64,000 nt of DNA, from positions 2,196,350 through 2,260,349 of the forward strand of contig OW818696.1 of assembly GCA_942493355.1 (NCBI GenBank). Direction: 5' to 3'. Made by a program: the position numbers and the translations under genes. The notes beneath the pieces were generated by a model. It did no database searches, was not told the DNA's origin, and saw only the letters and a program-made list of their open reading frames with translations. Positions 2,576-62,760 of the stretch are shown piece after piece; position 1 is the stretch's first letter; every line of letters starts with the position of its first letter. This DNA comes from an uncultured Desulfovibrionaceae bacterium. GTDB lineage: Bacteria; Desulfobacterota; Desulfovibrionia; Desulfovibrionales; Desulfovibrionaceae.

Positions 2576-3616
2576 TCAGTCTTTGCAGGAGCAGGAGTCC
2601 GGGGCGGTCGGTAGTCCCGTTCTCGTCTCACCGTGCACAAGCTCCCGCACCTTGAAGGGCATGTTGCCGGAGACCGCGTCGTGGGTGTTCACCAGCACTT
2701 CCAGTATCAGGCCCGTGCTCATGAAGCCAAGCGACGAGAGGTAGAGCAGCACCGCGCCCAGGAAGGGCGGGCGGGTTCCCATGTGCTCGCCCAGGAAGAC
2801 CTTGCCATACAGCAGCCAGCACATGATGAGCGAGGCCACCATGAACAGCCACAGGCTGATGCGCCCGAAGAGGTACACCGGGCGCTGCTTGTAGGAGTTT
2901 TGGAACCACAAAAGCACGATGTCGAAGAGCACGTCGATGCTGCGGCCGATGCCGTAGTGGCTTTTACCCGCAAAGCGCGGCGGGGCGCTGGTGGGCACCT
3001 CGCACACCGCGCCGCCCTGGCTGTACACCAGGGCCGGGATGAGCCTGTGCTGGCCCTCGCGCAGTTTGAGCCCGCGCGCCACCTCGCCCTTGATGATGGA
3101 CAGCCCGCCCATGTCGTGGATGTCGCACTTGCTGGTGGCGCGCATGAGGTAGTTGGCGATGAGGCTGGGGATGCGCCGCAGCAGCAGCGACTCCTGCCGC
3201 TTTTGCCGCACGCCCTTTACCAGGTCGTAGCCCTGGCGGATCTTTTCGATGAGGCTTGGCACCTCCTCGGGCGGGTGCTGGAGGTCGCCATCCATGATGA
3301 CGACATACCGGCCGCGCGAGTGCTGGATGCCCGCGTAAATGGCCGTGCACTGGCCCCGGTTGCGCGCCAGGAAAACGCCCAACAGGTGCGGGTCGGCGGC
3401 GGCCAGCTCGCGGATGATCTCCGGGGTGGCATCGGTGCTGCCGTCGTTCACCAGGATGATCTCGTAGCTGGCGCCCATGCCGCTGAGGGCCGCGCCCATG
3501 CGCCGGTGGAACTCGCGTACGCAGAGCTCCTCATTGTGCATGGGGGTGACGATGCTCACCTCCACGGGGAAGGTCTCGGCCTCGGGCGCGGGAATATGTG
3601 ATTCGGGTGTGGACAT
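2576..3616 (-). CDS. family-2 glycosyltransferase, polyprenyl-phosphate sugar transferase-like (ArnC/GtrB type) with C-terminal TM helices
   Basis: Internal ATG at 3616 (MSTPESH...). GT2 motifs VSIVTPMHNEE, ILVNDGSTD, VIMDGDLQHPP. Two hydrophobic C-terminal helices. The 206-aa N-terminal extension in the track ORF is Arg/Pro-rich and overlaps the next gene. Confidence 0.85.
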   Translation of the reverse strand: MSTPESHIPAPEAETFPVEVSIVTPMHNEELCVREFHRRMGAALSGMGASYEIILVNDGSTDATPEIIRELAAADPHLLGVFLARNRGQCTAIYAGIQHSRGRYVVIMDGDLQHPPEEVPSLIEKIRQGYDLVKGVRQKRQESLLLRRIPSLIANYLMRATSKCDIHDMGGLSIIKGEVARGLKLREGQHRLIPALVYSQGGAVCEVPTSAPPRFAGKSHYGIGRSIDVLFDIVLLWFQNSYKQRPVYLFGRISLWLFMVASLIMCWLLYGKVFLGEHMGTRPPFLGAVLLYLSSLGFMSTGLILEVLVNTHDAVSGNMPFKVRELVHGETRTGLPTAPDSCSCKD

Positions 3617-3654
3617 GGGCTGGTTTTCCGTCCGTTTTGTGCGTGGGTGAAAGA

Positions 3655-4569
3655 CTATTGCCGCACCGCTGGCCGCGCTGTGCGGGTGGCCGGGTCGAGC
3701 TGTCCGTAATGGGCCAGGCGGGCCCCGGCCTCGCGCAGGGTGCGCCCCCAGCCGGGAGCGGCCAGGGCGTCGCGCTCCGCCTGCCACTGGCTGGCTATGC
3801 GCATGGGGCCGTAGTCCTCCGGCAGCGGGCCGTCTCCCGTCATCTCTCCGTGCAGGGGCGCGCCGGGGTGGCACACCAGCTCCAGCACGCCGGGCCGCAC
3901 ACGCTTCATATACGCGCCAAGGCGCTCCGGCAACAGGTCCGCGCCCTGGTCGGCGATGCCGAACACGCAGTCCGGGCAGGCCACGCCGGTCGGGATGTTC
4001 TGGAGCTTGTGGAACAGGCCGAAGGTGTTGAGCACGCGGCAACGCAGGGCGCCCTTGTCCCAGCGGGTGAGCGGCAGGCGCTCCACGGGCCTGCGCACCC
4101 AGTGGATGCCGTGGCGGGCGGCCACGCGGCAGGCGGCCTCGAACAGTCCTGGCCAGGCGTGGATGTGCTTTTCGCTGTCCACATGGGTGGGGCTGACGCC
4201 GAGCTCGATGGCGCGCTCGATCTGGCGCGACCACTCGCGCTCCACATCGGCCACGGTGAAGGCCTTGGTGAGGTAGCGGCCGAAAAGTTCCGTGTAGTTG
4301 CCCAGAAACAGGCCGTCCGGCCGGAGCAGGCCGGGAATCTCGTGGGCCGGGCTTTGCGGGCGGCCGCGCAGGATGTTCAGGTGCACGCCGATGCCGATGG
4401 AGTCGGTATCCGCACTGAAGGCGCGGGCGGCGGCGGCGGCATCGGGCGCGTTCACCAGCAGGGTGGCGCTGGTTACGCGGGAGAGGGCCGCCAGGTCTTC
4501 CACGGCGCGCCGCACCGCGGGCGAGAGCCCCAGGTCGTCCACATTCACAACAACATGCATGGCGCGCAT
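3655..4569 (-). CDS. YdjC/ChbG-family carbohydrate deacetylase-like protein
   Basis: Start taken at MRAMHVVVNVDDLGLS (ATG 4569, alternative 4560). YdjC-type motifs NVDDLGLS and HVDSEKHIH. Confidence 0.8.
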   Translation of the reverse strand: MRAMHVVVNVDDLGLSPAVRRAVEDLAALSRVTSATLLVNAPDAAAAARAFSADTDSIGIGVHLNILRGRPQSPAHEIPGLLRPDGLFLGNYTELFGRYLTKAFTVADVEREWSRQIERAIELGVSPTHVDSEKHIHAWPGLFEAACRVAARHGIHWVRRPVERLPLTRWDKGALRCRVLNTFGLFHKLQNIPTGVACPDCVFGIADQGADLLPERLGAYMKRVRPGVLELVCHPGAPLHGEMTGDGPLPEDYGPMRIASQWQAERDALAAPGWGRTLREAGARLAHYGQLDPATRTARPAVRQ

Positions 4570-4778
4570 GCTACCCTCTGGCGGTCCGAAGGTAAAGCGC
4601 AGCGCGCCACGGTCATCGTGGAGGCCGGGCAGTGGCCGAACATGCTGCGGCGCAAAGGCGGGCGGGAACTCGCGAGCATTTTTTTCACTAGCCAACTTTC
4701 CAGGCCTCGGATAGAAGAGAACAAAATGATACCACACCGCTCCGGGGCGTACCGGGGCGGAATATGAGGAGGATTAGA

Positions 4779-5429
4779 ATGCTCATCGAGAATTGGATGA
4801 CCAAGGACGTCATCACCCTGACCCCTGAGACCTCCATGATGAAGGCCTCCAAGCTCATGAAGGAAAAGCGCATCAGCCGCGTTCCCGTTGTGGACGAGAA
4901 GGGCGCGCTGGTGGGCATCGTCTCCGACCGCGACATCAAGGACGCCTCCCCCTCCAAGGCCACCACCCTGGACATGCACGAGCTGTACTACCTGCTCTCC
5001 GAGGTGAAGCTTAAGGACATCATGACCAAGAAGGTCATGACCATCCGCGTGGGCGAGACCGTTGAACGGGCCGCCGTGATCCTGCTGGAGAACAACATCG
5101 GCGGCCTGCCGGTGGTGGACGAGGCCAACAAGGTCGTGGGCATCGTCACGGACTCCGACATCTTCAAGGTGCTCATCCGCATCACCGGCGTGCAGGAGGG
5201 CGGCATCGAGATTGGCCTGCGCCTGCCCAACCAGCCCGGCGGCCTGGTGCCCGTGCTGGACCACCTGAAGGACGCCGGAGCCCGCGTCATGAGCCTGCTG
5301 ACCTCCTGCGAACCCGCTGAGGTGGGCATGCGCGATGTGTTCATCCGCATCCGCGACCTGGACAAGGCCGAGCTGAACAAGCTGAAGGCCAGCATGAAGG
5401 ACAAGTTCGAAGTGCTGTACTGGGTGTAA
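4779..5429 (+). CDS. CBS-pair domain protein with C-terminal ACT-like domain (AcuB-like)
   Basis: ATG 4779 preceded by GAGGAGG (4766-4772). Two CBS repeats (MTKDVITL...VPVVDEKGALVGIVSDRDI; MTKKVMTI...LPVVDEANKVVGIVTDSDI). Confidence 0.8.
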   Translation: MLIENWMTKDVITLTPETSMMKASKLMKEKRISRVPVVDEKGALVGIVSDRDIKDASPSKATTLDMHELYYLLSEVKLKDIMTKKVMTIRVGETVERAAVILLENNIGGLPVVDEANKVVGIVTDSDIFKVLIRITGVQEGGIEIGLRLPNQPGGLVPVLDHLKDAGARVMSLLTSCEPAEVGMRDVFIRIRDLDKAELNKLKASMKDKFEVLYWV

Positions 5430-7817: not shown

Positions 7818-9256
7818 CAATCCTCCAGATTGCAGGCCGCCAGGGGGGGCTGCAGTTCGGCCTTGTCCCAGCAGGTGCTGCTGGCCTCAAAGGAAAAGCG
7901 TGCGGAGTGCATGAGCTCCAGGCAGGCCTCGGCGGCCTCGGGGTCGTAGAGCCTCCCGCTGCCGTTTTCGATCTCCTCCAGGGCGGCGGGCAGGCCCAGG
8001 CTGGCGCGGTAGGGCCGGTGGGAGCTCATGGCCTCCACCACATCGGCCACGGCCAGTATGCGCGCCTCCAGGCAGATATCCGGCCCTTTGAGGCCGCCGG
8101 GGTAGCCGGAGCCGTCCATGCGCTCGTGGTGCTCCAGCACGGCCCGGGCCACGGGCCAGGGGAAGGAGACCTCGCGCAGGATTTCAAAGCCCACCTCCGG
8201 GTGCGCCTTCATCAGGCCCATCTCCATGTGGGAAAGCCTGGCGGGCTTGGAGAGGATCTCCGCCGGGACGTAGATTTTGCCGACATCATGCAGGATGGCC
8301 GCCACCTCCAGCCCCTCCAGGGGGTCTGGGGGCAGGCCCAGCTCCCGGCCGATGGCGCAGGCCAGCCGCGCCACGCGCTGCTGGTGGCCGCCGGTGTACG
8401 GGTCGCGCTTTTCGGCCATGCTGGCCAGGGCGCGCACGGTTTGGCGGAAGGTGGTGCGCAGGGCGGCCATGCTCGCCCGCAGGTCGGCATCGGCCTTCTT
8501 TTTAAGGGAAACATTGCGCAACACCATGACCCGGCCCTGGAAGCTGCCGTCGACACCGGTGAGCGGAGATACGGAGATGCTTACCGGCAGCTCCAGGCCC
8601 CCGGCCGTGCGCAGCAGCATGTCCTCGCACATGGGGTGGGAGCCGCAGGGGTTGCAGATCTCCTCCAGGGCGGAGACGGGCAGGCCGGTCTCCTGCTCCC
8701 GGATGGTGAACAGGGCCGGAACCTCCGCGCCCAGGGCGGTTCTCTTGTCCAGGCCAAGCTGGGCCAGTGCCGCGGGGTTCAGGTAGGTCACGCGGCCCTC
8801 GGTGTCGGTGGAAAGCACCGCATCGGAAAGGCTGCCCAGGGTGGTGGAAAGCAGGCGCTCGTTGTCCTGCAGGCGCACCTCGGCCTTGTGCTTGAACAGG
8901 GCCATCTCCACGGTGAGGGCCAGCTCGTGGTCCTCAAAGGGCTTGGTGAGGTAGCCCAGGGGGTTGGTGTGCTTGGCGCGGTCCAGGGTTTTTTGGTCGG
9001 TGTAGGCGGTGATGTACACCACGGGCAGGTTGTAGCTTTCGCGCAGCAGGGTGGCGGTCTCGATGCCGTCCATGCCGCCCTCAAGCATCACGTCCATGAG
9101 CACGAGGTCCGGCTTGGTGGCCTTGGCCAGCTCCACGGCCTTGGAGCCGGTGACGGCATGCCCCACCACCTCGTAGTCAAGGCGCACCAGCCGCGCGCGT
9201 ACGTCCAGCGCAACGATGGTTTCGTCCTCGACAATGAGGATGCGTCCCTTGCTCAT
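7817..9256 (-). CDS. response regulator with PAS and HD-GYP (c-di-GMP phosphodiesterase-type) domains
   Basis: REC (ILIVEDE...LMDVMLEGGMDG), PAS-like middle region, HD-GYP motifs ILHDVGK and HHERMDGSGYPGGL. Confidence 0.9.
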   Translation of the reverse strand: MSKGRILIVEDETIVALDVRARLVRLDYEVVGHAVTGSKAVELAKATKPDLVLMDVMLEGGMDGIETATLLRESYNLPVVYITAYTDQKTLDRAKHTNPLGYLTKPFEDHELALTVEMALFKHKAEVRLQDNERLLSTTLGSLSDAVLSTDTEGRVTYLNPAALAQLGLDKRTALGAEVPALFTIREQETGLPVSALEEICNPCGSHPMCEDMLLRTAGGLELPVSISVSPLTGVDGSFQGRVMVLRNVSLKKKADADLRASMAALRTTFRQTVRALASMAEKRDPYTGGHQQRVARLACAIGRELGLPPDPLEGLEVAAILHDVGKIYVPAEILSKPARLSHMEMGLMKAHPEVGFEILREVSFPWPVARAVLEHHERMDGSGYPGGLKGPDICLEARILAVADVVEAMSSHRPYRASLGLPAALEEIENGSGRLYDPEAAEACLELMHSARFSFEASSTCWDKAELQPPLAACNLED

Positions 9257-9275
9257 CCGTGCTCCTTGAAAGGGT

Positions 9276-10301
9276 CTAGGGTTGCCGCGTGCCAGTCAGC
9301 ATGCCGGTCTGCTCATCCGGCTCCGCCAGCACATCCGCCAGGGCGCCCGCCAGGCCGGGGTGCCGGAACCGGTAGCCCGCCGCCGTGAGGCGCGTGGGCA
9401 CGGCCCGCACGCCGGAAAGCAGAACCTCCTGCGCCATTTGGCCCAAGATGAGCCGAAGCGCAAGCCCCGGCGCGGGCAAAAACGCCGGGCGGCCCAGGGC
9501 CTTGCCCAGGGCCCGTGCGAACCCTCGGGAGTCCACGGCCTCCGGCGCGGCAAGGTTGAAGGGGCCGCTGAGCGCCGTGGCGGCGGGGTTTGCCGCCGTT
9601 TGCCCCGTGGCGGGCTCCAGCGCGCCGAGCAGGAAAAGTATCGCCCCCACCTCGTCGTCCAGGTGAATCCAGGGCACCATCTGCCTGCCGTTGCCCAGGG
9701 GGCCGCCCAGGCCCAGGCGGAAGGCCGGGAGCATCTTGGCCAGCGCGCCACCCCGGCCCAGCACCATGCTGGTGCGGACGACGGCGCGGCGCACGCCCAA
9801 GGCTTCGGCCTCCTGGGTGGAGGCTTCCCAGCGGCGGGAAACCTCGGCCAAAAAGCCCGTGCCGGAGGGTTCGTCCTCGCCCACGGGCTCCGTGCCGCGC
9901 GGGCCATAATACCCCACGGCCGAGGCCTGGATGAGGGCGGCGGGCATGCCCGCGCCCGCGCTTGCGGCGCGCCGCAGGGCGTCCACCACCGCCGCGCCCG
10001 CGCTCAGGCGGCTTTGCAGAATGCGCTGCTTCTTGTCCTCGGTCCAGCGGCCCTCGGCGATGTTCTCGCCCGCGAGGTTGACGATGGCCGACTCCGGGCC
10101 GAGCAGGTGCGCCCAGCCCTCGCCCGTGCGCCCGTCAAAAGGCACTCCGATGATGGGTGATGCGGGTGTTTTGGCACCCAGGGCCATGGCGACTTTTTCC
10201 GGCCGCCGCGAGGGCACGATGATCTCATGCCCCTGTGCGGCAAGACGCCGCGCCAATGTGCCGCCGATGAAGCCGGTGCCGCCGAGGATGATGATACGCA
10301 T
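9276..10301 (-). CDS. TIGR01777/YfcH-like NAD-dependent epimerase family protein (SDR fold + DUF1731)
   Basis: Rossmann motif MRIIILGGTGFIGGTL. C-terminal region typical of YfcH-like proteins. Confidence 0.8.
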   Translation of the reverse strand: MRIIILGGTGFIGGTLARRLAAQGHEIIVPSRRPEKVAMALGAKTPASPIIGVPFDGRTGEGWAHLLGPESAIVNLAGENIAEGRWTEDKKQRILQSRLSAGAAVVDALRRAASAGAGMPAALIQASAVGYYGPRGTEPVGEDEPSGTGFLAEVSRRWEASTQEAEALGVRRAVVRTSMVLGRGGALAKMLPAFRLGLGGPLGNGRQMVPWIHLDDEVGAILFLLGALEPATGQTAANPAATALSGPFNLAAPEAVDSRGFARALGKALGRPAFLPAPGLALRLILGQMAQEVLLSGVRAVPTRLTAAGYRFRHPGLAGALADVLAEPDEQTGMLTGTRQP

Positions 10302-35501: not shown

Positions 35502-38102
<2,601 letters not shown>

Positions 38103-38446
38103 ATAGGTACCGTCCTGCGCCGGGCCGACATGACGGCGGTGGCCGGTGGCCGGGCGCTTTTGCCTGCGCATGCGGCAGGGTTTCGTGGGGGACTTCTTTC
38201 GTTTCAAACAGTGGCTCCTTGCCCGACAGTATTCCCGGCGCGGCGAACTCGTGTCGCTGCATCGGGCCAGGGGGATGGGCTCAAGGTGAGTATGGTAAGG
38301 CTGGATTGCCAGCTGGCAAGGGCCAGGGGAGCGAAAAGAGGGGGCAAAAGGCCGAAAAGGGGCGGAAAAGAAGCGATTTTACGGCCTGTTTGCGCCGGGG
38401 GACAAAGTGGAGCATGCCGGTACGCGAAGCGGGGCGCGGAGAAGGT

Positions 38447-38731
38447 CTAGCGGCGTACTGCGAAGCCCTGGAACACCTCGGGCTCGTCCTGGCGCAGGGT
38501 GGCCTCCACGGTCGCCACCAGGGCGGAGGGCGGGCCCTCGTGCAGGGCCAGGCGGAAGCTCTCCAGCGCCGCCGCTTTCCCCTGCGCCACGCCGCGCACA
38601 CTGCCGTCCGGCTCGTTGCGCACCCAGCCCACCAGCCCCAGGCTGCGCGCCGTCATCTGCGTCCAGCCGCGAAACCAGACGCCCTGGACGCGGCCTGTTA
38701 CGTGGAAGTGGAGGGTGGGATAGTTTAACAT
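38447..38731 (-). CDS. acyP: acylphosphatase
   Basis: HFHVTGRVQGVWFRGW...GWVRNEPDGSV. Start taken at MLNYPTL (ATG 38729-38731). The track's longer N-terminus runs into the low-GC island. Confidence 0.88.
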   Translation of the reverse strand: MLNYPTLHFHVTGRVQGVWFRGWTQMTARSLGLVGWVRNEPDGSVRGVAQGKAAALESFRLALHEGPPSALVATVEATLRQDEPEVFQGFAVRR

Positions 38732-38732
38732 A

Positions 38733-40499
38733 TTAAAGTTTAGAGAACTCATCGAGGTTCATTAAAATGGTCTTTATCTCAGTTGGAACTGTTTCAGGGG
38801 TAAAGCATGAGAGTATGTCATTTTCGGTTAACGAGATAGAGTAAGTCGACTGGAGATGGTCATTCAATTTGCTTAGAACTAGTTTGCCTGGGACAAGGTT
38901 GAGGCGAGTTGAAAAATCATCCCAAACAGCTGAAAAGTCACGCAGGATCGTTGCGATAATTGTTGAATCGTCGATGGACTTGTTGCTCGACTTCATGGCG
39001 GTTTGACGCCTTGATATAAATTGACCTTGTATTGTTTCTTTGAGTTCTTCTGTTACTTCATTAAGTGCTGAAAAAGATGATCCTGTGTATGTTGATTTTG
39101 AACTTGTTCTGTGGCTTCGCTCCTCAAGTTTGTTGTGAACAGCAATGTCAAGAACATCTGGTACAAGTAAAAAGTTTTCTAGCTCTTTTCTTGTGTGGAT
39201 GTGAACTAGCTTGCATGTTTTTGATAAGGCTTGTCCCTCCAATTCAACTTCCTGATCTGTGCGGTAGTCGCGATCAAATATGGCTGTAGCGAGAACTTTT
39301 GCTGAGAGAGCTTTTTCAGTCCCATCGATAAAATACTTTATCTTTAGTGGGTTAAATCCTTGTGTTGGGACGACAGCAAAGCTTGACCTTAGTGCAACAG
39401 AGCGTAGCCCAAGTATAAATGCGAATTGTGATAGTACTCTGAAGTCTTTCCCTTCGACAAAAACAATCTTTTTCGTTTTGGCAATTTGAGTTAGTGTCGG
39501 GTTAAGGTTGGAGCCTAGCGTGTCGAAAATTTTCTTCATGTGAGTTGGGTCGCCGACGCGCTTAGCTGAACGTGCGGATTTGCTTACAATGAGAAGTTCG
39601 TTGATGCTTGCTTCTGCAATTATTTCAGGTGAGTGTGTGGCGAGTAGTATGTCAGATTTCATTGTGCGGAGAATGGAAACGAGCTGCCTTTGTATGTCAG
39701 AGTGCAAGTAAATGTCTGGTTCGTCGATTATGAATAGGGAGGAGTTTTGATTGTTTACAACAAATGTGAGCATTTGGCACCAGACTTGAAATCCAAAGCC
39801 AGCCCAAAACACTTCTCTGTCTATTCTGTCTTCAGGGCAAAACATTCTTAGGAGTGGTTTCGAGTGCGTTTCGTCAATTTCAGGTTTTTTTATATCCATA
39901 CCAGGCCACGTGCGCTGAATTAGTTCTCGGAAAGCATCAAATTTGTCAGAATAGTGATACCAGATATTTCTGAAATTGCGAGAAGCCTTGTGCGTTAATA
40001 ATGCTTCTCTTGCTGCATCCTTTTGAAACAGTACTTCTTCGTGGTCAACAGGCCCGAGAACTGGAACAAATCCGATGCTAATTTTATATTTATCTTTGAA
40101 TCCAGTCGGTGAATTTGGGACTTTTCCTTGGCCACCACATATTAAATTGCACACACCAGATTCAGGAAAGTATAATTGCAAAGTAAGATTTCCGGATGTT
40201 CTAAATGTTACAGAGGCTGGCTTGGAGTCGTCATAGTTGTGATAGATATTTTCTGCTGCTACTGGTATGTTACTTAAGTTGATTTCGTAACCCTTTGTCT
40301 TTCCATCTGGCCCAGATACAATTGTTGGTTTTTTGTTTCTGGCTTTTCTTAATGCTTCCGACAGGATCCGTATCGCTCCAAGTATTGTTGACTTCCCAGC
40401 GTTGTTTGCTCCAACAAGTATGTTGAATTTTTCAAGCGATACGGAGAAAAAACTAAACGCTTTGTAATTAGAAAAATGTATTGAAGTAATACGCTGCAT
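38733..40499 (-). CDS. fused ABC-type ATPase / Toprim (OLD-family or DUF4435-like) protein; candidate phage-defence nuclease (class-1 OLD or merged PARIS AriA-AriB-like)
   Basis: 588 aa. Walker A GANNAGKST (aa 30-38), Walker B LFIIDEPD (aa 255-262), LLATHS (aa 285-290). Toprim-type VFVEGKDF (E349), IFDRDY (D409/D411), KELENFLL (aa 438-445). GGAGGG RBS at 40507-40512. AT-rich codon usage unlike every other gene in the window. Confidence 0.85.
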   Translation of the reverse strand: MQRITSIHFSNYKAFSFFSVSLEKFNILVGANNAGKSTILGAIRILSEALRKARNKKPTIVSGPDGKTKGYEINLSNIPVAAENIYHNYDDSKPASVTFRTSGNLTLQLYFPESGVCNLICGGQGKVPNSPTGFKDKYKISIGFVPVLGPVDHEEVLFQKDAAREALLTHKASRNFRNIWYHYSDKFDAFRELIQRTWPGMDIKKPEIDETHSKPLLRMFCPEDRIDREVFWAGFGFQVWCQMLTFVVNNQNSSLFIIDEPDIYLHSDIQRQLVSILRTMKSDILLATHSPEIIAEASINELLIVSKSARSAKRVGDPTHMKKIFDTLGSNLNPTLTQIAKTKKIVFVEGKDFRVLSQFAFILGLRSVALRSSFAVVPTQGFNPLKIKYFIDGTEKALSAKVLATAIFDRDYRTDQEVELEGQALSKTCKLVHIHTRKELENFLLVPDVLDIAVHNKLEERSHRTSSKSTYTGSSFSALNEVTEELKETIQGQFISRRQTAMKSSNKSIDDSTIIATILRDFSAVWDDFSTRLNLVPGKLVLSKLNDHLQSTYSISLTENDILSCFTPETVPTEIKTILMNLDEFSKL

Positions 40500-40544
40500 T
40501 TGGATTCCCTCCGAACAATGGAAACTTGTAAGCTTGGGGAATGA

Positions 40545-40550
40545 ATCATA
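40545..40550 (-). promoter_or_regulatory. -10-like hexamer TATGAT upstream of the island gene
   Basis: Lies in AT-rich DNA ~45 nt upstream of the ATG at 40499. No well-spaced -35 was found, so the call is weak. Confidence 0.2.
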
Positions 40551-40821
40551 CTACGCAATTATGCAATTAAGCCATGTCATGTGCTTTTTGCTCTCCCATT
40601 ACCCTCAATGATATCCATAATCCGCTCTTTCTGTCCACCCCGCCAACCCCGGTGCGGCCATGCGCACCCGCTCCTTTCCTTCGCCCTGCATCTTCCAGCC
40701 AGTCCTGCTCGAACAAGATGGCTCTGGTTTTGAGAGTGGGCATGGCGGCAGATATCCGCCACCGTAAAGACGGTGCTCCCCGCCCCCCCCAGGTCGTGCT
40801 GTCGTGGTGGGGCGCGAGCTG

Positions 40822-41055
40822 ATGCGCCTGCTGGAGGTGAAGATGGACGGCCCCCGGTGGCATCATGGCTCGCGCATCGGCCAGGAAATGGCCAGGGAGC
40901 TGGGGCCGGAGGGGGGCGAGCGCCTTATCGCCGCGCGGAAGCGCGAGGGACTTGAGCTGAAGGGCAAGTCCGGCCTGGTGTTAGACCAGATGACCGGCCC
41001 GGCGCCCGGCCCGCTGCCTAGTCAGGAAGCAGGCCCGCAGGAGCTGAAGATTTAG
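40822..41055 (+). CDS. possible small protein (77 aa), unknown function
   Basis: ATG 40822. GC3-rich, host-like codons (MRLLEVKMDGPRWHHGSRIGQEMARELG...). Its stop overlaps the convergent radC stop. No RBS or family recognised. Confidence 0.25.
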   Translation: MRLLEVKMDGPRWHHGSRIGQEMARELGPEGGERLIAARKREGLELKGKSGLVLDQMTGPAPGPLPSQEAGPQELKI

Positions 41056-41879
41056 AGTAGGCCCGCCTCCTGAAAGCTGAAATGGCTGCCCTCGGTGACC
41101 ACCAGGTGGTCCAGCACGCGCAGGCCAAGCTCCTCGGCGCTGCGTTTGATGCGGCGCGTCAGGTCGTGGTCCGCCGTGGAGGGGGCCGGGTCGCCGCCGG
41201 GGTGGTTGTGCGCCAGTATGAGGCCAGAGGCCGAGTGCTTGAGCGCCAGGGCCAGCACCTCGCGCGGGTAGACGGCGGTTTGGTCCACCGTGCCGCGCCC
41301 CACGCGCTCCCAGCAAATCAGCCGGTTCTTGTTATCCACCAGCGCCACCCAGAATTCCTCCACCGGCAAGTGCCCGATGCGCGCGCGTGCGGCCTGGGCC
41401 ACCACCTCCGGCCCGCTGAACACGGTGCGCTGGCGCACGGGCTCCTCGCCCAGGCGCGCAAACACCTCCCGCAGCACGGCCCAGTGGCCCGCCATGCCCT
41501 CGCCGCAGCCCTTCACCTCGGTCAGCGCCTCCGGTGTGGCGGTTATGACCCCGCGCAGGCTGCCGAAGCGCGTCAGCAGATCCTTGGCCAGCGGCTTGGT
41601 GTCGCGCCGGGGCAGCACCTGCCCAAGCAACAACTCCAGCAGCTCGTAGTCGGCCAGCACGGCGGGCGCGGCGGAGAGTTTCTCGCGCAGGCGCTGGCGG
41701 TGTCCCAGGTAGTGGGGAGCGGGCTCTGCGACTTTGGGCGTGGGCGTGGCTGTTTTGGAGCTGGCAGTGGTGGCTGTGGAACTGGTGATGGCTGTGGGAA
41801 CGGAGACGAGGACAGCCTGGGCTGCCGGAGGGGCCGTTGCGGCCTTGCGCGCGGGCTTCCTGGGGGGATGGTCCGGCAT
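41052..41879 (-). CDS. radC: RadC-family JAB/MPN domain protein with an ~55-aa Pro/Ala/Thr-rich N-terminal extension
   Basis: HhH region (LADYELLELLL...PLAKDLLTRFGSL) and JAMM motif ILAHNHPGGDPAPSTADHDLT. The ATG shares one nt with the holA TGA (TGATG). Confidence 0.88.
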   Translation of the reverse strand: MPDHPPRKPARKAATAPPAAQAVLVSVPTAITSSTATTASSKTATPTPKVAEPAPHYLGHRQRLREKLSAAPAVLADYELLELLLGQVLPRRDTKPLAKDLLTRFGSLRGVITATPEALTEVKGCGEGMAGHWAVLREVFARLGEEPVRQRTVFSGPEVVAQAARARIGHLPVEEFWVALVDNKNRLICWERVGRGTVDQTAVYPREVLALALKHSASGLILAHNHPGGDPAPSTADHDLTRRIKRSAEELGLRVLDHLVVTEGSHFSFQEAGLL

Positions 41880-48544: not shown

Positions 48545-48974
48545 GGGGCACCTCTCAGACGCCGGGCGGTATCGCTCGCGGCGGAATTCTCAAACATCGG
48601 AACCAAGCCATTTACCCCAAAAGTGGCCGAAGGGGAAAGCCCTTTTTTGGGGGTGCAAATGCGGCGATATTCCAGCCGGATGCGCCCGGTGTGCATGCGG
48701 CTGGAAGAACGCCCGCAGCCCGTTTATGCCCCGCCTGCCTCGTTTGCCCCCCACCTGCGCACAACCCGCCACGGCCGTCCTTGACGCCAGATCCCCCCTG
48801 CGGGTATACAGCGCGCTGACCAACCCGCCCCGCGTGACTGGCGAAGCGTGGAACAAACCACGAGGAAGCGCCGGGGCGTCCACATGCCGCTCGCCTGGGC
48901 CGCGCCCGAGTTCTGCTCGGACGCGCTACCGATACCCTCCCCCCACACGCGGGAGGCCACCCTCGGAGGCGCTC

Positions 48975-60076: not shown

Positions 60077-61757
60077 CTATGGGGGTCTCCTTGGGCGCGG
60101 GGGGAATCTCGCGCACCTTGGGCAGGGCGTTGTAGCAGGCCCAGAACCTGGGCCAGAGGGCGGCCAGGCCGCCGGGGTTGTCGATGGAGATGCCCGGCAT
60201 GGGGAAGGACAATAGCGCCAGGGCCAGGGTCATGTGCGGGCTGGGGCTTGTCCAAACGCCGGTCCAGAGGAGAGGCCCGGCCGACCGGCCGGCGTCCTTG
60301 TCGGCGGGCAGCACCACGATGGCGCCGTCCTTGTCCTCGGTGGCGGCACCCAGGCGGTCCAGCAGCTCCTGGGCCACGGCGCGGTGCACGGTCTGACCGG
60401 CGGCGGGCAGCTGCACGGTGGCGCCACCGGCCTTTACGGCCAGGGCCAGGGCCAGGGGCAGCAGATCGGGGTCCGTGCCCATGCCAAGGGTGACGCCCGC
60501 GTACAGCGGGGCGCTGCGCAGCAGCACGGCGCTGGCGTCGTCGGTTTTCAGGGCCTCCACGGCCAGGCCGAGGGCGGCGAGGTCCGCGGCCAGTGCCTTG
60601 GGCGGCACGTAGGTGCCGGAGAGCTTGGCCACGCCGCCGGCAAAGGCGGGCAGGGCCAGCAGGTAGGCGGCCAGGGCGGTGTCGAGCGGGAGCTCCGGCG
60701 CGTAGGGCACCTTGGGCTTGCCAGCGGGCACGATGTATTCGTTGTCCTGGCGCTTGGCCTTGATGCCGCACAGGGCCAGGGCCTCCAGGGCCTCGTCCAG
60801 GGCCTTGGCCTGCATCAGGGCGGCGGCGGGATCGGCGCTGAGGGCCAGGCGCAGCCCCTCGGGGTAGCTCCAGGCGGCCAGGGCCAAAGCCTGGGCGAAC
60901 AGGGGCGGGGTGTCCGCCGCGAGTTCCACGCGGGCGGCCATGTCGCCGCCGGATTCCAGGCGCACGGGCAGGCCGCGGCTGCGGGGGTTCATGGAGGCCA
61001 GGCGCGCGCCCAGCTTGGGCAGCAGGGTCTCCAGGGGCCGCAGGTCGAGGAGCTTGAGCTCCGCGCCGCCCGCGAACTTGGAGCGTCCGGCCTCGCGCAG
61101 GGCGAAGGCGATGAGCGTATACAGGGTGAAGGGCTCATCGCCGCAGAAAATAAGGATGTCCTCAAAGCGCAGGGGGCCGAATTCGCCAGCCTCGCGCCCG
61201 GATTTGTGGGAGGCGTCGGGCTGGCTTTCCAGGCGGTCGTCGGTCCAGGAGAGGTGCGCGCCAGCCTGGTTGAGGCCCTTGACCAGCTCGATGAGCGGGT
61301 CGTTGAGCACCACGCCGGTGAGGCGCAGGTTCTGGCCCGTGGCGGCGGCCAGCACGGCCAGCATGCGCGTCAGCGCCAGGGAGCGCGGGCCGGAGATGTC
61401 GATATCGGCTGCCTCGGAGCGGGGAACCATGGTGAAGGGCTTGTCCGCGCTGCGGCGGCCCTCCGGGGTTTCCAGGCCGAAGCTGCCCAGCAGGGCGAAG
61501 AGCTGGCGCGCCATGCGCTGGTCCAGGTTCTGGGCGCGCGCTGCTTCCTCGAAGTTGGCCCAAAGGCGCTTCTCGGTTTCGCGGTCCAGCACCTGCCTGC
61601 CCTTGGCGGCGCGCTGCACCAGCTTGCTGCGGCGGGAAAGCATGTAGATCAGCTTGCCATCCATATCGAGGAGGTCCTCGAGGGGATTGGCGCGGGGGCG
61701 CTTGTCCTGGCCACGGTCGAATGTGATGGGTCGGTCGGTCATGGGTCGGTCTGTCAT
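60039..61757 (-). CDS. fusion of an AroQ-type chorismate-mutase-like domain and a divergent EPSP-synthase-fold domain
   Basis: Start MTDRPMTDRP at ATG 61757. CM-like LEDLLDMDGKLIYMLSRRSKLVQRAAKGRQVLDRETEKRLWANF. The remainder aligns by eye with the enolpyruvyl-transferase fold, but the canonical motifs are replaced (see findings). Confidence 0.7.
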   Translation of the reverse strand: MTDRPMTDRPITFDRGQDKRPRANPLEDLLDMDGKLIYMLSRRSKLVQRAAKGRQVLDRETEKRLWANFEEAARAQNLDQRMARQLFALLGSFGLETPEGRRSADKPFTMVPRSEAADIDISGPRSLALTRMLAVLAAATGQNLRLTGVVLNDPLIELVKGLNQAGAHLSWTDDRLESQPDASHKSGREAGEFGPLRFEDILIFCGDEPFTLYTLIAFALREAGRSKFAGGAELKLLDLRPLETLLPKLGARLASMNPRSRGLPVRLESGGDMAARVELAADTPPLFAQALALAAWSYPEGLRLALSADPAAALMQAKALDEALEALALCGIKAKRQDNEYIVPAGKPKVPYAPELPLDTALAAYLLALPAFAGGVAKLSGTYVPPKALAADLAALGLAVEALKTDDASAVLLRSAPLYAGVTLGMGTDPDLLPLALALAVKAGGATVQLPAAGQTVHRAVAQELLDRLGAATEDKDGAIVVLPADKDAGRSAGPLLWTGVWTSPSPHMTLALALLSFPMPGISIDNPGGLAALWPRFWACYNALPKVREIPPAPKETPIDDAKPKRRRVRV

Positions 61758-61903
61758 GGATACTTCTTTTATATGGAGTGTAAGAGGCGCACCATAGCCG
61801 GAAAACCTCCGGGCGGCAAGAGCGGTCGTGGAACGGATTATTGCGGGCAATGCAAGGGTTTTCTTGCCGAACAATCGACGGCGGCATAGGGGTTTTTGTG
61901 TAG

Positions 61904-61928
61904 TATTATCCAAAATATTTGGATAATA
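61904..61928. promoter_or_regulatory. perfect 11-bp inverted repeat (TATTATCCAAA-ATA-TTTGGATAATA), candidate operator upstream of the liv operon
   Basis: Read directly. Lies 77 nt upstream of the livG ATG, in the AT-rich divergent promoter region. Confidence 0.4.
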
Positions 61929-62004
61929 AGATTTGGTCTGACAAAATAAGCAAATCTTCGCGCTTGATTTTTTTTGCTATGCCTCTGTATACCATCTGCC
62001 ACTT

Positions 62005-62760
62005 ATGGCGACTCTCGAACTTTCCGACATCAGCGTCCGCTTCGGCGGCCTCCAGGCACTCACCGATGTCTCCTTCCGCGTGCGCGAGGGTGATATCGTT
62101 GGTCTTATCGGTCCCAACGGGGCGGGCAAGACCACCGTATTCAACGTTATTACCGGTGTGTACAGGTACTGCGCCGGGCAGGTGGCCTACGACGGAAACG
62201 TCCTGGCTGGCCGTCGGCCCCACCAGATCCTTGCCCTGGGCGTTGCCCGCACCTTCCAGAACATCCGCCTGTTCCAGAACATGACGGCCCTGGAAAACGT
62301 GATGGTGGCCCAGCACTGCCGCACCAAGGCCGGGGTTGTGGGCGCCGTGTTGCGCCTGCCCTCCCAAAAGCGGGAGGAGGGGCGCATACGCAAGCGCGCC
62401 ATGGAAGCCCTGGACTTCATGGGGCTTTCCGAGTTCGCGGGCGAGGTGGCCTCCAACATGGCCTATGGCTTGCAGCGCAGGCTGGAAATTGCCCGCGCCC
62501 TGGCAAGCGAGCCCAAGACCCTGCTGCTGGACGAGCCCGCCGCGGGCCTGAACCCGGCGGAAAGCCTGGACCTGATGAACACCATTGCGCGCATTAGCGG
62601 GCTTGGCATAAGCATTTTGATGGTGGAGCACGACATGAAGGTGGTCATGGGCATTTGCCGCCACATCGTGGTGCTGGATCATGGGGTGATGATCGCCGAG
62701 GGCAAGCCGGAGGAAATCCAGCGCGACCCCAAGGTGATCGAAGCATATCTTGGCCAATAA
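62005..62760 (+). CDS. livG: branched-chain amino acid ABC transporter ATP-binding protein
   Basis: [43 protein letters not shown]. Confidence 0.92.

Follow-up and report, generated by a model that had tools for sequence, protein, structure and literature searches.

A horizontally acquired OLD-like ATPase–Toprim protein encoded in a Desulfovibrionaceae cargo slot is a probable single-gene phage-defence nuclease

We analysed 64,000 nucleotides of contig OW818696.1 (positions 2,196,350 to 2,260,349, forward strand; assembly GCA_942493355.1) from an uncultured Desulfovibrionaceae bacterium; this whole stretch is referred to here as the window. Within it, a low-GC island comprising a single gene lies next to the acylphosphatase gene acyP. 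The gene, an open reading frame (ORF) at 38733..40499 on the minus strand, encodes a protein of 588 aa with an ABC ATPase head, a predicted Toprim domain and an all-helical C-terminal domain. It was acquired horizontally, and its product belongs to a large family of ~590-aa OLD-like ATPase–Toprim proteins. Judged by its sequence and predicted structure, the protein is most likely a stand-alone phage-defence or abortive-infection nuclease, a reading that we consider probable. It is a variant within the known OLD-like superfamily, and thus a credible immune gene that is plausible rather than surprising.

A single low-GC gene in independent assemblies

The ORF, which ends with TAA at 38735-38733, has a GC content of 40.6% (37% at third codon positions) compared with 66.6% in the remainder of the window. 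It is the sole low-GC tract, as every other 500-nt stretch of the 64 kb has at least 53% GC. One other dip, at 61751-62250 (0.54), coincides with an ORF junction near 61.9 kb and is far weaker than the island. A preliminary description of this DNA, made from the letters alone, had drawn attention to the switch in composition on the basis of three hand counts, which proved exact on recounting (33.3%, 38.3% and 76.7%). Its account of the island as one 588-aa ORF plus AT-rich upstream DNA also stands, except for the length of the latter: the AT-rich tract reaches ~40620, giving ~120 nt upstream of the ATG instead of ~70 nt.

Contigs from two read sets, SRR14559659 and SRR14559660, which were assembled independently, are 100% identical to the window over 36824-41611 and 38648-40655. 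Because these two read sets together span both island junctions at full identity, the junctions are real and an assembly chimera is excluded. The ATPase–Toprim protein sequence was the same in the two samples.

An intact OLD-type ATPase head

Residues 1-310 (39570..40499, minus strand) constitute the ATPase head, delimited by Pfam, by the family alignment and by PDB matches to GajA, PtuA and OLD proteins. AAA_21 matched residues 25-294 (3.4e-20) and AAA_15 matched at 3.4e-18, in agreement with the ABC/SMC-type head that had been read from the motifs GANNAGKST (30-38), LFIIDEPD (255-262) and LLATHS (285-290). In an alignment of 37 full-length homologues, which defines the invariant ATPase residues in this study, the Walker A lysine K36, Walker B D259 and E260, the D-loop histidine H266 and the H-loop histidine H289 were all invariant, as was a signature-like GFGFQ at 234-238. 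H266 lies at +7 from Walker B, the spacing found in Thermus scotoductus OLD (Ts OLD) and P2 Old (PMC7049728). The protein therefore carries the ATPase hallmarks of the superfamily: AAA_15/AAA_21, the Walker A lysine, the Walker B acid, and the D-loop and H-loop histidines. Because the Walker A and B, D-loop and H-loop residues are invariant, the head looks like an intact, catalytically competent OLD-type ABC ATPase.

Searches with PADLOC, NCBIfam and PDB sequences did not single out one relative, as Old, AriA, AriAB, GajA, PtuA, NsnB, MAD3 and AbiLi gave moderate and similar scores. The full-length AlphaFold model (predicted local distance difference test (pLDDT) score 83) had as its best Foldseek matches GajA 8sm3 (3.6e-13) and then Ts OLD 6p74 (7.6e-13).

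Toprim and helical domains of one nuclease module

Alignments, an AlphaFold model, a fold match and hhalign place a Toprim domain at residues 340-445 (39165..39482, minus strand). Models built from family alignments show the beta-alpha-beta-alpha-beta-alpha-beta Toprim fold at 344-435, with its four strands at 344-348, 375-378, 403-409 and 431-435, followed by an all-helical domain; the C-terminal model reached a pLDDT of 91 and a predicted template modelling score (pTM) of 0.86. The motifs VFVEGKDF (346-353), IFDRDY (407-412) and KELENFLL (438-445), which like those of the ATPase lie exactly where the preliminary description had placed them, contain the putative metal ligands E349 (39453-39455), D352, D409 and D411 (39267-39275), and E439 and E441 (39177-39185), with N442 alongside. 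D352, E439-x-E441 and K539, like N442, are invariant in the family alignment; by sequence, D352 and E439-x-E441 are candidates for the metal B ligands of the superfamily (an acidic residue near the Glu plus an x-E motif) and K539 for its catalytic lysine. The Toprim hallmark of the superfamily, in which this fold lies in the C-terminal part and has a conserved Glu and DxD as its metal A site, is present.

Comparison with characterised proteins supported this assignment. A phmmer alignment to GajA extends through the Toprim glutamate, setting LLIEG of GajA opposite VFVEG, in which the glutamate is E349. The hhalign comparison of the family with P2 Old (97% probability) covered residues 195-430, a stretch reaching from the signature motif past the Toprim glutamate to the DxD, and paired E349 with E398 and D409/D411 with D453/D455, the P2 Old catalytic residues being those given in PMC7049728. 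The C-terminal profile alone was uninformative against P2 Old in the same kind of comparison. The sole significant PDB match of the C-terminal model was the C-terminal region of Burkholderia pseudomallei OLD (Bp OLD; 6nk8; probability 1.0, E = 2.7e-3), with a TM score of 0.50 on the target and 265 alignment columns, so that the match runs past the Toprim domain into the helical region. Ts OLD (6p74; probability 0.90) and the DnaG Toprim domain (0.85) followed. Among predicted viral structures nothing significant was found, with only generic similarity to Toprim, RloB and primase folds.

We also scanned the C-terminal halves of 22 relatives singly against Pfam and PADLOC. OLD-like_TOPRIM was matched by 6 of the 22 and DUF4435 by 3 (best 3.2e-6). 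Among PADLOC models, AriAB matched 14/22 (6e-10), AriB 10/22 (2e-9) and mad4 7/22, and AbiLii was also hit; the Old and GajA models matched none of the 22. Because the C-terminal half of the island protein itself has no Pfam or PADLOC match, its Toprim assignment rests on relatives, fold and motifs. On this evidence, residues 340-445 of the model adopt a Toprim fold in which the acidic set is complete (E349; D409-x-D411; D352 and E439-x-E441). The Toprim domain proposed in the preliminary description for residues 340-450 is thus upheld by the GajA alignment, the hhalign comparison with P2 Old, the modelled fold, the 6nk8 match and the profile matches of relatives; in the combined Pfam and Foldseek analysis, AAA_21 and AAA_15 occupy the N-terminal half, and GajA, Ts OLD and 6nk8 appear as the fold matches.

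The all-helical domain (residues 446-588; 38736..39164, minus strand), defined by a pLDDT above 90, profile alignments and conservation, contains an invariant G538-K539 pair (K539 at 38883-38885), W526 and a terminal helix at 573-587. Taken alone, this tail matched nothing in Pfam or PADLOC. Class 2 OLD proteins have a helical domain that opens with the metal-B T-x-E motif and contributes a catalytic lysine, K562 (PMC6755086); the helical part here starts at E439-x-E441. The AriB model (236 positions) aligns over positions 3-200 in the best-matching relative, reaching about residue 565 in full-length numbering. In a combined alignment of the family and a sister family (described below) that is only 15-19% identical to the C-terminal half of the island protein, the only C-terminal columns invariant across both families were E349, D409, D411, E439, E441, G538 and K539. 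The AriB alignment, the span of the 6nk8 match and the invariance of G538-K539 indicate that the tail belongs to the predicted nuclease module and is not a separate extra domain. As the Gly-Lys pair is conserved as strictly as the metal ligands, K539 is a candidate active-site lysine, by analogy the counterpart of K562 in Burkholderia OLD. The tail had been described as ~135 aa, helical and without a recognisable motif; its helical nature is borne out by the model, whereas the invariant G538-K539 and the link to the nuclease module correct the rest.

A large family without a fixed neighbour

More than 100 full-length relatives were found at 51-60% identity, in Syntrophales, Elusimicrobia, Actinobacteria, Acidobacteria, Verrucomicrobiota and others, and the island copy diverges more than any other sequence in its alignment (at most 60% identity to any relative). 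A search with the C-terminal profile returned 2,139 clusters at 50% identity, of which the full-length ones all show the ~590-aa layout. Some members carry the NCBI name 'ATP-dependent (endo)nuclease', and one has a precomputed match to PF14491 (DUF4435). Pfam, NCBIfam and PADLOC hold no family-level model for these proteins; the Old, AriAB and GajA models score 50-90 bits. Running PADLOC, as the preliminary description had proposed, thus gave OLD-group ATPase matches and no family-level system, and the distinct subtype that it had considered takes the form of a separate sequence family.

No neighbouring gene was common to nine homologue loci from different phyla, consistent with the single-gene system first suggested for the window. 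Conflict and mobile genes were frequent nearby, among them IS110, DDE and Y1 transposases, Gp49/HTH toxin–antitoxin genes, Fic, DUF4062 and a TIR/SEFIR-GASH-DO-GTPase cluster; plain housekeeping neighbours such as feoAB and ribonucleotide reductase also occurred. An association with reverse transcriptase (RT), as in class 3 OLD systems, looked suggestive in the first loci sampled and was rejected, since RT genes were present in only 2/9 loci overall. In these two, the RT gene lies just upstream of the homologue (L003, 1924-5697, 1257 aa, weak RVT_1; L004, 4058-4963, 301 aa, RVT_1) and may simply be defence-island company. Likewise, two unrelated genomes have feoA and feoB upstream of the homologue (L006/L007, 975-3337; L016, 2694-4882), possibly by coincidence. 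The GC content of the homologue did not exceed that of its flanks in any of the ten other loci (L020 being essentially equal); at the island locus the gap is -0.26.

A more distant homologue, WP_114083283.1 (625 aa; L023, 3989-5866), is encoded on plasmid pNsp_c of Nostoc sp. ATCC 53789, between pglX and pglZ inside a BREX-1 operon. It aligns with the family end to end (99.7%, residues 6-585 against 4-598), and through it we found a sister family of 600-650 aa (~620) with hundreds of members and no Toprim or DUF4435 annotation. We considered BREX embedding as a general feature and discarded it, since the Nostoc locus was the one case and two other sister-family loci lay outside BREX.

Relation to known OLD-like systems

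Class 1 OLD proteins include P2 Old, Ts OLD, Vibrio cholerae Vc OLD and E. coli YbjD. The OLD classes are set mainly by context (PMC10568477, PMC7049728, PMC12392090): class 1 genes stand alone, encode 500-600 aa and have no helicase or RT gene beside them (PMC12392090), class 2 is paired with GajB, class 3 belongs to retron cassettes that also contain an RT and a noncoding RNA, and class 4 is split into AriA and AriB, which are sometimes fused.

By this standard the island gene resembles class 1: it stands alone, encodes 588 aa and is flanked by radC, a DUF2059 remnant and acyP, with neither a helicase nor an RT gene beside it. It differs in having no family-level match, the PADLOC Old model scoring 72 bits with its best stretch at residues 1-48 only, and in its ~140 aa of C-terminal helical domain, which Ts OLD lacks (PMC7049728). 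The candidate catalytic lysine lies in this helical domain and not just after the metal-B motif. Spacing also sets the protein apart: the distances from Glu to DxD and from DxD to ExE are 60/30 here, 54/47 in Ts OLD, 55/51 in Bp OLD, 55/88 in P2 Old and about 57/28 in AriB, so the second acidic motif follows DxD more closely (30 residues) than in either Ts OLD (47) or P2 Old (88); positions in the known proteins are from PMC7049728 and PMC12409363, with approximate values for AriB.

The likeness to class 2 lies in structure. GajA 8sm3 is the top full-length fold match, B. cereus GajA being a representative of the class, and Bp OLD has the same order of a Toprim domain and a helical domain that starts at the metal-B motif and carries a conserved lysine (PMC6755086). 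By contrast, no GajB/UvrD-like helicase gene adjoins the island gene in the window or the homologues in the nine other loci, the helical domain is ~50 residues longer than that of Bp OLD, and GajA models miss the C-terminal half. Class 3 differs too, as neither an adjoining RT gene nor an Rfam retron is present and the NCBIfam retron Eco8 effector model reaches 42.6 bits against a cutoff of 250.

PARIS shares an AAA_15/AAA_21-type ATPase with the island protein, whose relatives have Toprim–helical modules that match AriB and AriAB profiles; the motif spacing is near that of AriB, as an approximate comparison (PMC12409363), and fused single-gene forms are documented (PMC11464382). Across the 37 family members the best PADLOC E-values were 2.7e-26 for AriAB, 3.9e-23 for AriA, 5.2e-23 for Old and 6.3e-21 for GajA, with NsnB scoring almost the same. 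However, the AriAB model scores only 64 bits on the island protein, E. coli AriB was missed by both the sequence-profile and the fold search, and the PARIS rule requires a DUF4435 (PF14491) match of at least 27 bits (PMC9122126), whereas the C-terminal half of the island protein has none at E <= 10. The ATPase is also ~80 residues shorter before Walker B than in the AriAB model, which accounts for most of the difference in size from AriA plus AriB that the preliminary description had noticed, and a tethered nuclease cannot be freed from an AriA hexamer. Finally, the MADS proteins MAD3/MAD4 and the AbiLi/AbiLii pair resemble the family in that the ATPase matches mad3 and AbiLi and the C-termini of 7/22 relatives match mad4, but these are two-gene units in larger loci, and NCBIfam MAD3 gives 60 bits against a cutoff of 420.

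The protein is thus class 1 by context and size and class 2-like by C-terminal layout, and its nearest sequence affinity and motif spacing are with AriB/DUF4435 of class 4. By profile scores it is not a family-level member of OLD class 1, class 2 or class 3, and probably not of PARIS. The scores thus favour neither side of the choice between class 1 OLD and merged PARIS offered in the preliminary description, and what survives of that proposal is the superfamily placement. In the literature on merged AriAB we found no experiments beyond the PARIS papers.

A cargo slot between radC and acyP

Six Desulfocurvus or other Desulfovibrionaceae genomes have the lptE-holA-radC order of the window, with RadC 76-87% identical, and none of the six contains a homologue of the island gene. 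A DUF2059 gene is convergent with radC in 5/6 of them. Two, L008 and L009, keep acyP downstream (L008 also lon), and both hold different low-GC cargo of 35-46% GC in the same position. The L008 cargo (2985-4900) comprises a GmrSD_N/NsnA-like gene (PADLOC NsnA 1e-71) and a RiboL-PSP HEPN gene. In L009 the cargo (8716-10127) encodes two proteins, one of 307 aa and a membrane protein of 163 aa; neither matched Pfam or PADLOC significantly, and they are a candidate for an unknown defence pair. The slot between radC/DUF2059 and acyP (38732-40650 in the window) is therefore a cargo hotspot, with three unrelated low-GC inserts in three genomes.

The upstream boundary of the island is a decayed DUF2059 gene (40658..41055, plus strand), recognised by DNA comparison with L008, in which the gene is intact (215 aa); it is wholly absent in L009. 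The remnant retains a 32-nt match to the gene start (40658-40689), has lost ~220 nt internally and ends in an 83-aa C-terminal ORF at 40804-41055. At the DNA level the window is homologous to L008 from radC to 40872, again at 40689-40658 and once more from 38718 inside acyP, so the limits of the slot are the 5' ends of DUF2059 and acyP. No empty site was found: among the six relatives in the genome scan only two have radC and acyP flanking the slot, both occupied, and a metagenome scan of the slot added two short contigs only.

Because relatives hold other low-GC cargo in the same slot and the neighbouring DUF2059 gene is decayed, the island gene was acquired horizontally, as had been proposed; far from being present in all relatives, it is absent from all six, two of which carry different cargo at this site. 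A search of the locus for features that might delimit the island turned up no convincing repeats, direct or inverted, no tRNA gene and no integrase, which leaves site-specific insertion of an element unsupported and makes exchange of cargo by recombination in the conserved flanks the most likely route.

Expression signals and other features of the window

In the AT-rich 5' leader (40500..40637, minus strand), signals were identified by consensus matches only: a Shine–Dalgarno GGAGG at 40508-40512 that precedes the ATG by 8 nt, and TGGACA-18-TATCAT, which resembles a sigma-70 promoter, at 40637-40608 on the minus strand. Rfam detected no retron or other RNA near the island gene.

At the other end, the stop codon of the island gene lies 1 nt ahead of the acyP ATG at 38731 (TAAtATG). 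We set the boundaries of acyP (38447..38731, minus strand) by comparison with relatives, homology resuming at 38718. ATG 38731 is likely to be the true start because the N-termini of relatives agree (MKSPTTLHFHV in L008 and MHMTTLHFHI in L009, with MLNYPTLHFHV in the window); a longer 101-aa acyP ORF from 38752, overlapping the island gene, is probably spurious. Because the insertion displaced the native upstream region of acyP and no terminator was found between the two genes, acyP is now probably co-transcribed with the island gene.

Elsewhere in the window, a ZMP/ZTP riboswitch lies at 48824-48907 on the plus strand (Rfam RF01750, 53.5 bits, over the gathering score). The C-terminus of Lon (35502-35680, minus strand) carries a Lys/Ala/Pro-rich repeat tail of ~55 residues (AKPGAKGAKPAKPEAKAEVKPEVKVEAKPAAKVEAKPAAKKPVAKKPVAKKTTVKKA), which is histone H1-like and unusual for Lon.

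Discussion

The island protein is best explained as an acquired stand-alone ATPase–Toprim nuclease acting in defence, and its likeness to characterised systems suggests two more specific readings. One takes it for a class 1 OLD of the Vc OLD or Ts OLD type that targets DNA, a stand-alone nickase or exonuclease that would attack phage DNA during replication and leave tRNA uncut. Its single gene of this length fits the operational definition of the class (PMC12392090), the best fold matches are DNA-cutting OLDs (6nk8 and 6p74) together with GajA, the NCBI names point the same way, and a helical domain with a conserved lysine mirrors the DNA-binding domain of Bp OLD (PMC6755086). We nevertheless consider this reading unlikely, given that the PADLOC Old match is best over the first 48 residues, that the archetype Ts OLD lacks the 140-residue helical domain of the family (PMC7049728), that the Toprim module has its affinity with AriB/DUF4435, and that tRNA is now the reported target of P2 Old itself (PMC12445682).

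The other is a true merged PARIS protein (AriAB), with an ATPase that would sense anti-restriction proteins, Ocr for example, and a DUF4435 part that would cleave specific tRNAs in the anticodon stem; PARIS responds to Ocr and Ptr1/2 and cuts tRNA at those stems (PMC11464382, PMC12409363). BREX is inhibited by Ocr, and the distant Nostoc homologue sits inside BREX-1, which is a single case from the sister family. AriAB is the top PADLOC model across the 37 members, C-terminal halves match only AriAB, AriB, mad4 and AbiLii and never Old or GajA, one member has PF14491, and merged ariAB genes are documented (PMC9122126, PMC11464382). Yet the scores are far under family level, with AriA, Old, NsnB and GajA nearly equal, and the island protein has no PF14491 match where at least 27 bits are required (PMC9122126). 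E. coli AriB was not found among PDB sequences or in the top fold matches, and the ~80 residues missing before Walker B point to the absence of the coiled-coil or trigger-sensing insertion. We rate merged PARIS as a little less likely still than a class 1 OLD.

A role outside defence, either as a repair or cell-cycle ATPase–nuclease like archaeal Cran1 or as a selfish addiction gene that stabilises the island, is improbable. Non-defence OLD-family proteins are known (PMC12796447), several homologues lie beside feoAB, ribonucleotide reductase and other housekeeping genes, and the gene is probably co-transcribed with acyP; against this, the gene is patchily distributed across phyla and lacks an orthologue in all six close relatives, the genes are no richer in GC than their flanks in all ten other loci (L020 being essentially equal), and neighbours are often mobile or conflict genes, with recognised defence cargo filling the same slot in a relative. 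That the gene is a decaying remnant without current function is very improbable. The adjoining DUF2059 gene has decayed, this is the most divergent copy, and its C-terminus escapes all profile libraries; the frame is full-length, however, all 118 invariant columns of the 37-sequence alignment, including the catalytic residues, are kept, a good Shine–Dalgarno sequence and a promoter-like site precede it, and the protein is identical in two samples.

Several observations temper the reading of the protein as a phage-defence nuclease. Its own C-terminal half (aa 300-588) matched nothing in Pfam or PADLOC even at E <= 10, and the PADLOC matches of relatives there are weak (17-36 bits). C-terminal profiles of the family alone (A2) or of two families (A3) gave spurious matches only against PDB sequences, and no AriB chain was among the top 50 fold matches of the C-terminal model. 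The family is absent from annotated phages, no phage homologue was found by tblastn, and plasmid records hold it in two Cupriavidus chromids only; because of this near-absence from annotated phages and plasmids, its link to mobile defence islands is indirect. OLD-family proteins with other roles exist, Cran1 being an example (PMC12796447), and a preference for RNA draws only on motif spacing and weak profile affinity.

Precedents for OLD, GajA and PARIS proteins (PMC6755086, PMC7049728, PMC12445682, PMC11464382, PMC12409363, PMC12392090) suggest how such a defence nuclease could work. The ATPase domains would dimerise head to head, and the binding or hydrolysis of ATP, linked to a signal of infection, would license the tethered Toprim–helical modules; in P2 Old, ATP hydrolysis activates cleavage (PMC12445682). 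The modules may then form a two-metal active site completed by K539, like K562 in Burkholderia OLD (PMC6755086), and the enzyme would cut a nucleic acid essential to phage or cell, so that infection stops by what would be abortive infection. A PARIS-style activation, in which a free AriB dimer is released from the AriA hexamer, is impossible here because the nuclease is tethered to the ATPase. Known relatives use either kind of substrate: the targets of AriB and P2 Old are tRNA anticodon stems (PMC11464382, PMC12409363, PMC12445682), whereas Vc OLD, Ts OLD and GajA cut DNA (PMC12392090, PMC7049728). We lean slightly towards structured RNA, such as a tRNA anticodon stem, over DNA nicking, because the module has affinity with AriB/DUF4435 and its motif spacing is like that of AriB and RNase M5 and unlike that of Ts OLD, Bp OLD and P2 Old.

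More tentatively, the ~590-aa family and the ~620-aa sister family, including its BREX-embedded member, may together represent a distinct, widespread class of single-chain OLD-like immune nucleases, in which an AriB-like module is permanently tethered to a compact ATPase without the AriA coiled-coil or trigger insert. If so, the activation logic, and possibly the trigger and substrate, would be unlike those of P2 Old, Gabija, retron effectors and PARIS. Current questions in the OLD field are whether bacterial single-gene ATPase–Toprim proteins defend alone and whether fused AriAB proteins are class 1 OLD-like or PARIS-like (PMC10568477). The present family is abundant (>2,000 clusters at 50% identity, in many phyla), combines features of classes 1, 2 and 4, and offers a compact single-protein test case with K36, E260, E349, D409/D411, E439/E441 and K539 as mutational targets. 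The slot between radC/DUF2059 and acyP in Desulfocurvus-like bacteria is, moreover, a productive place to seek new defence systems.

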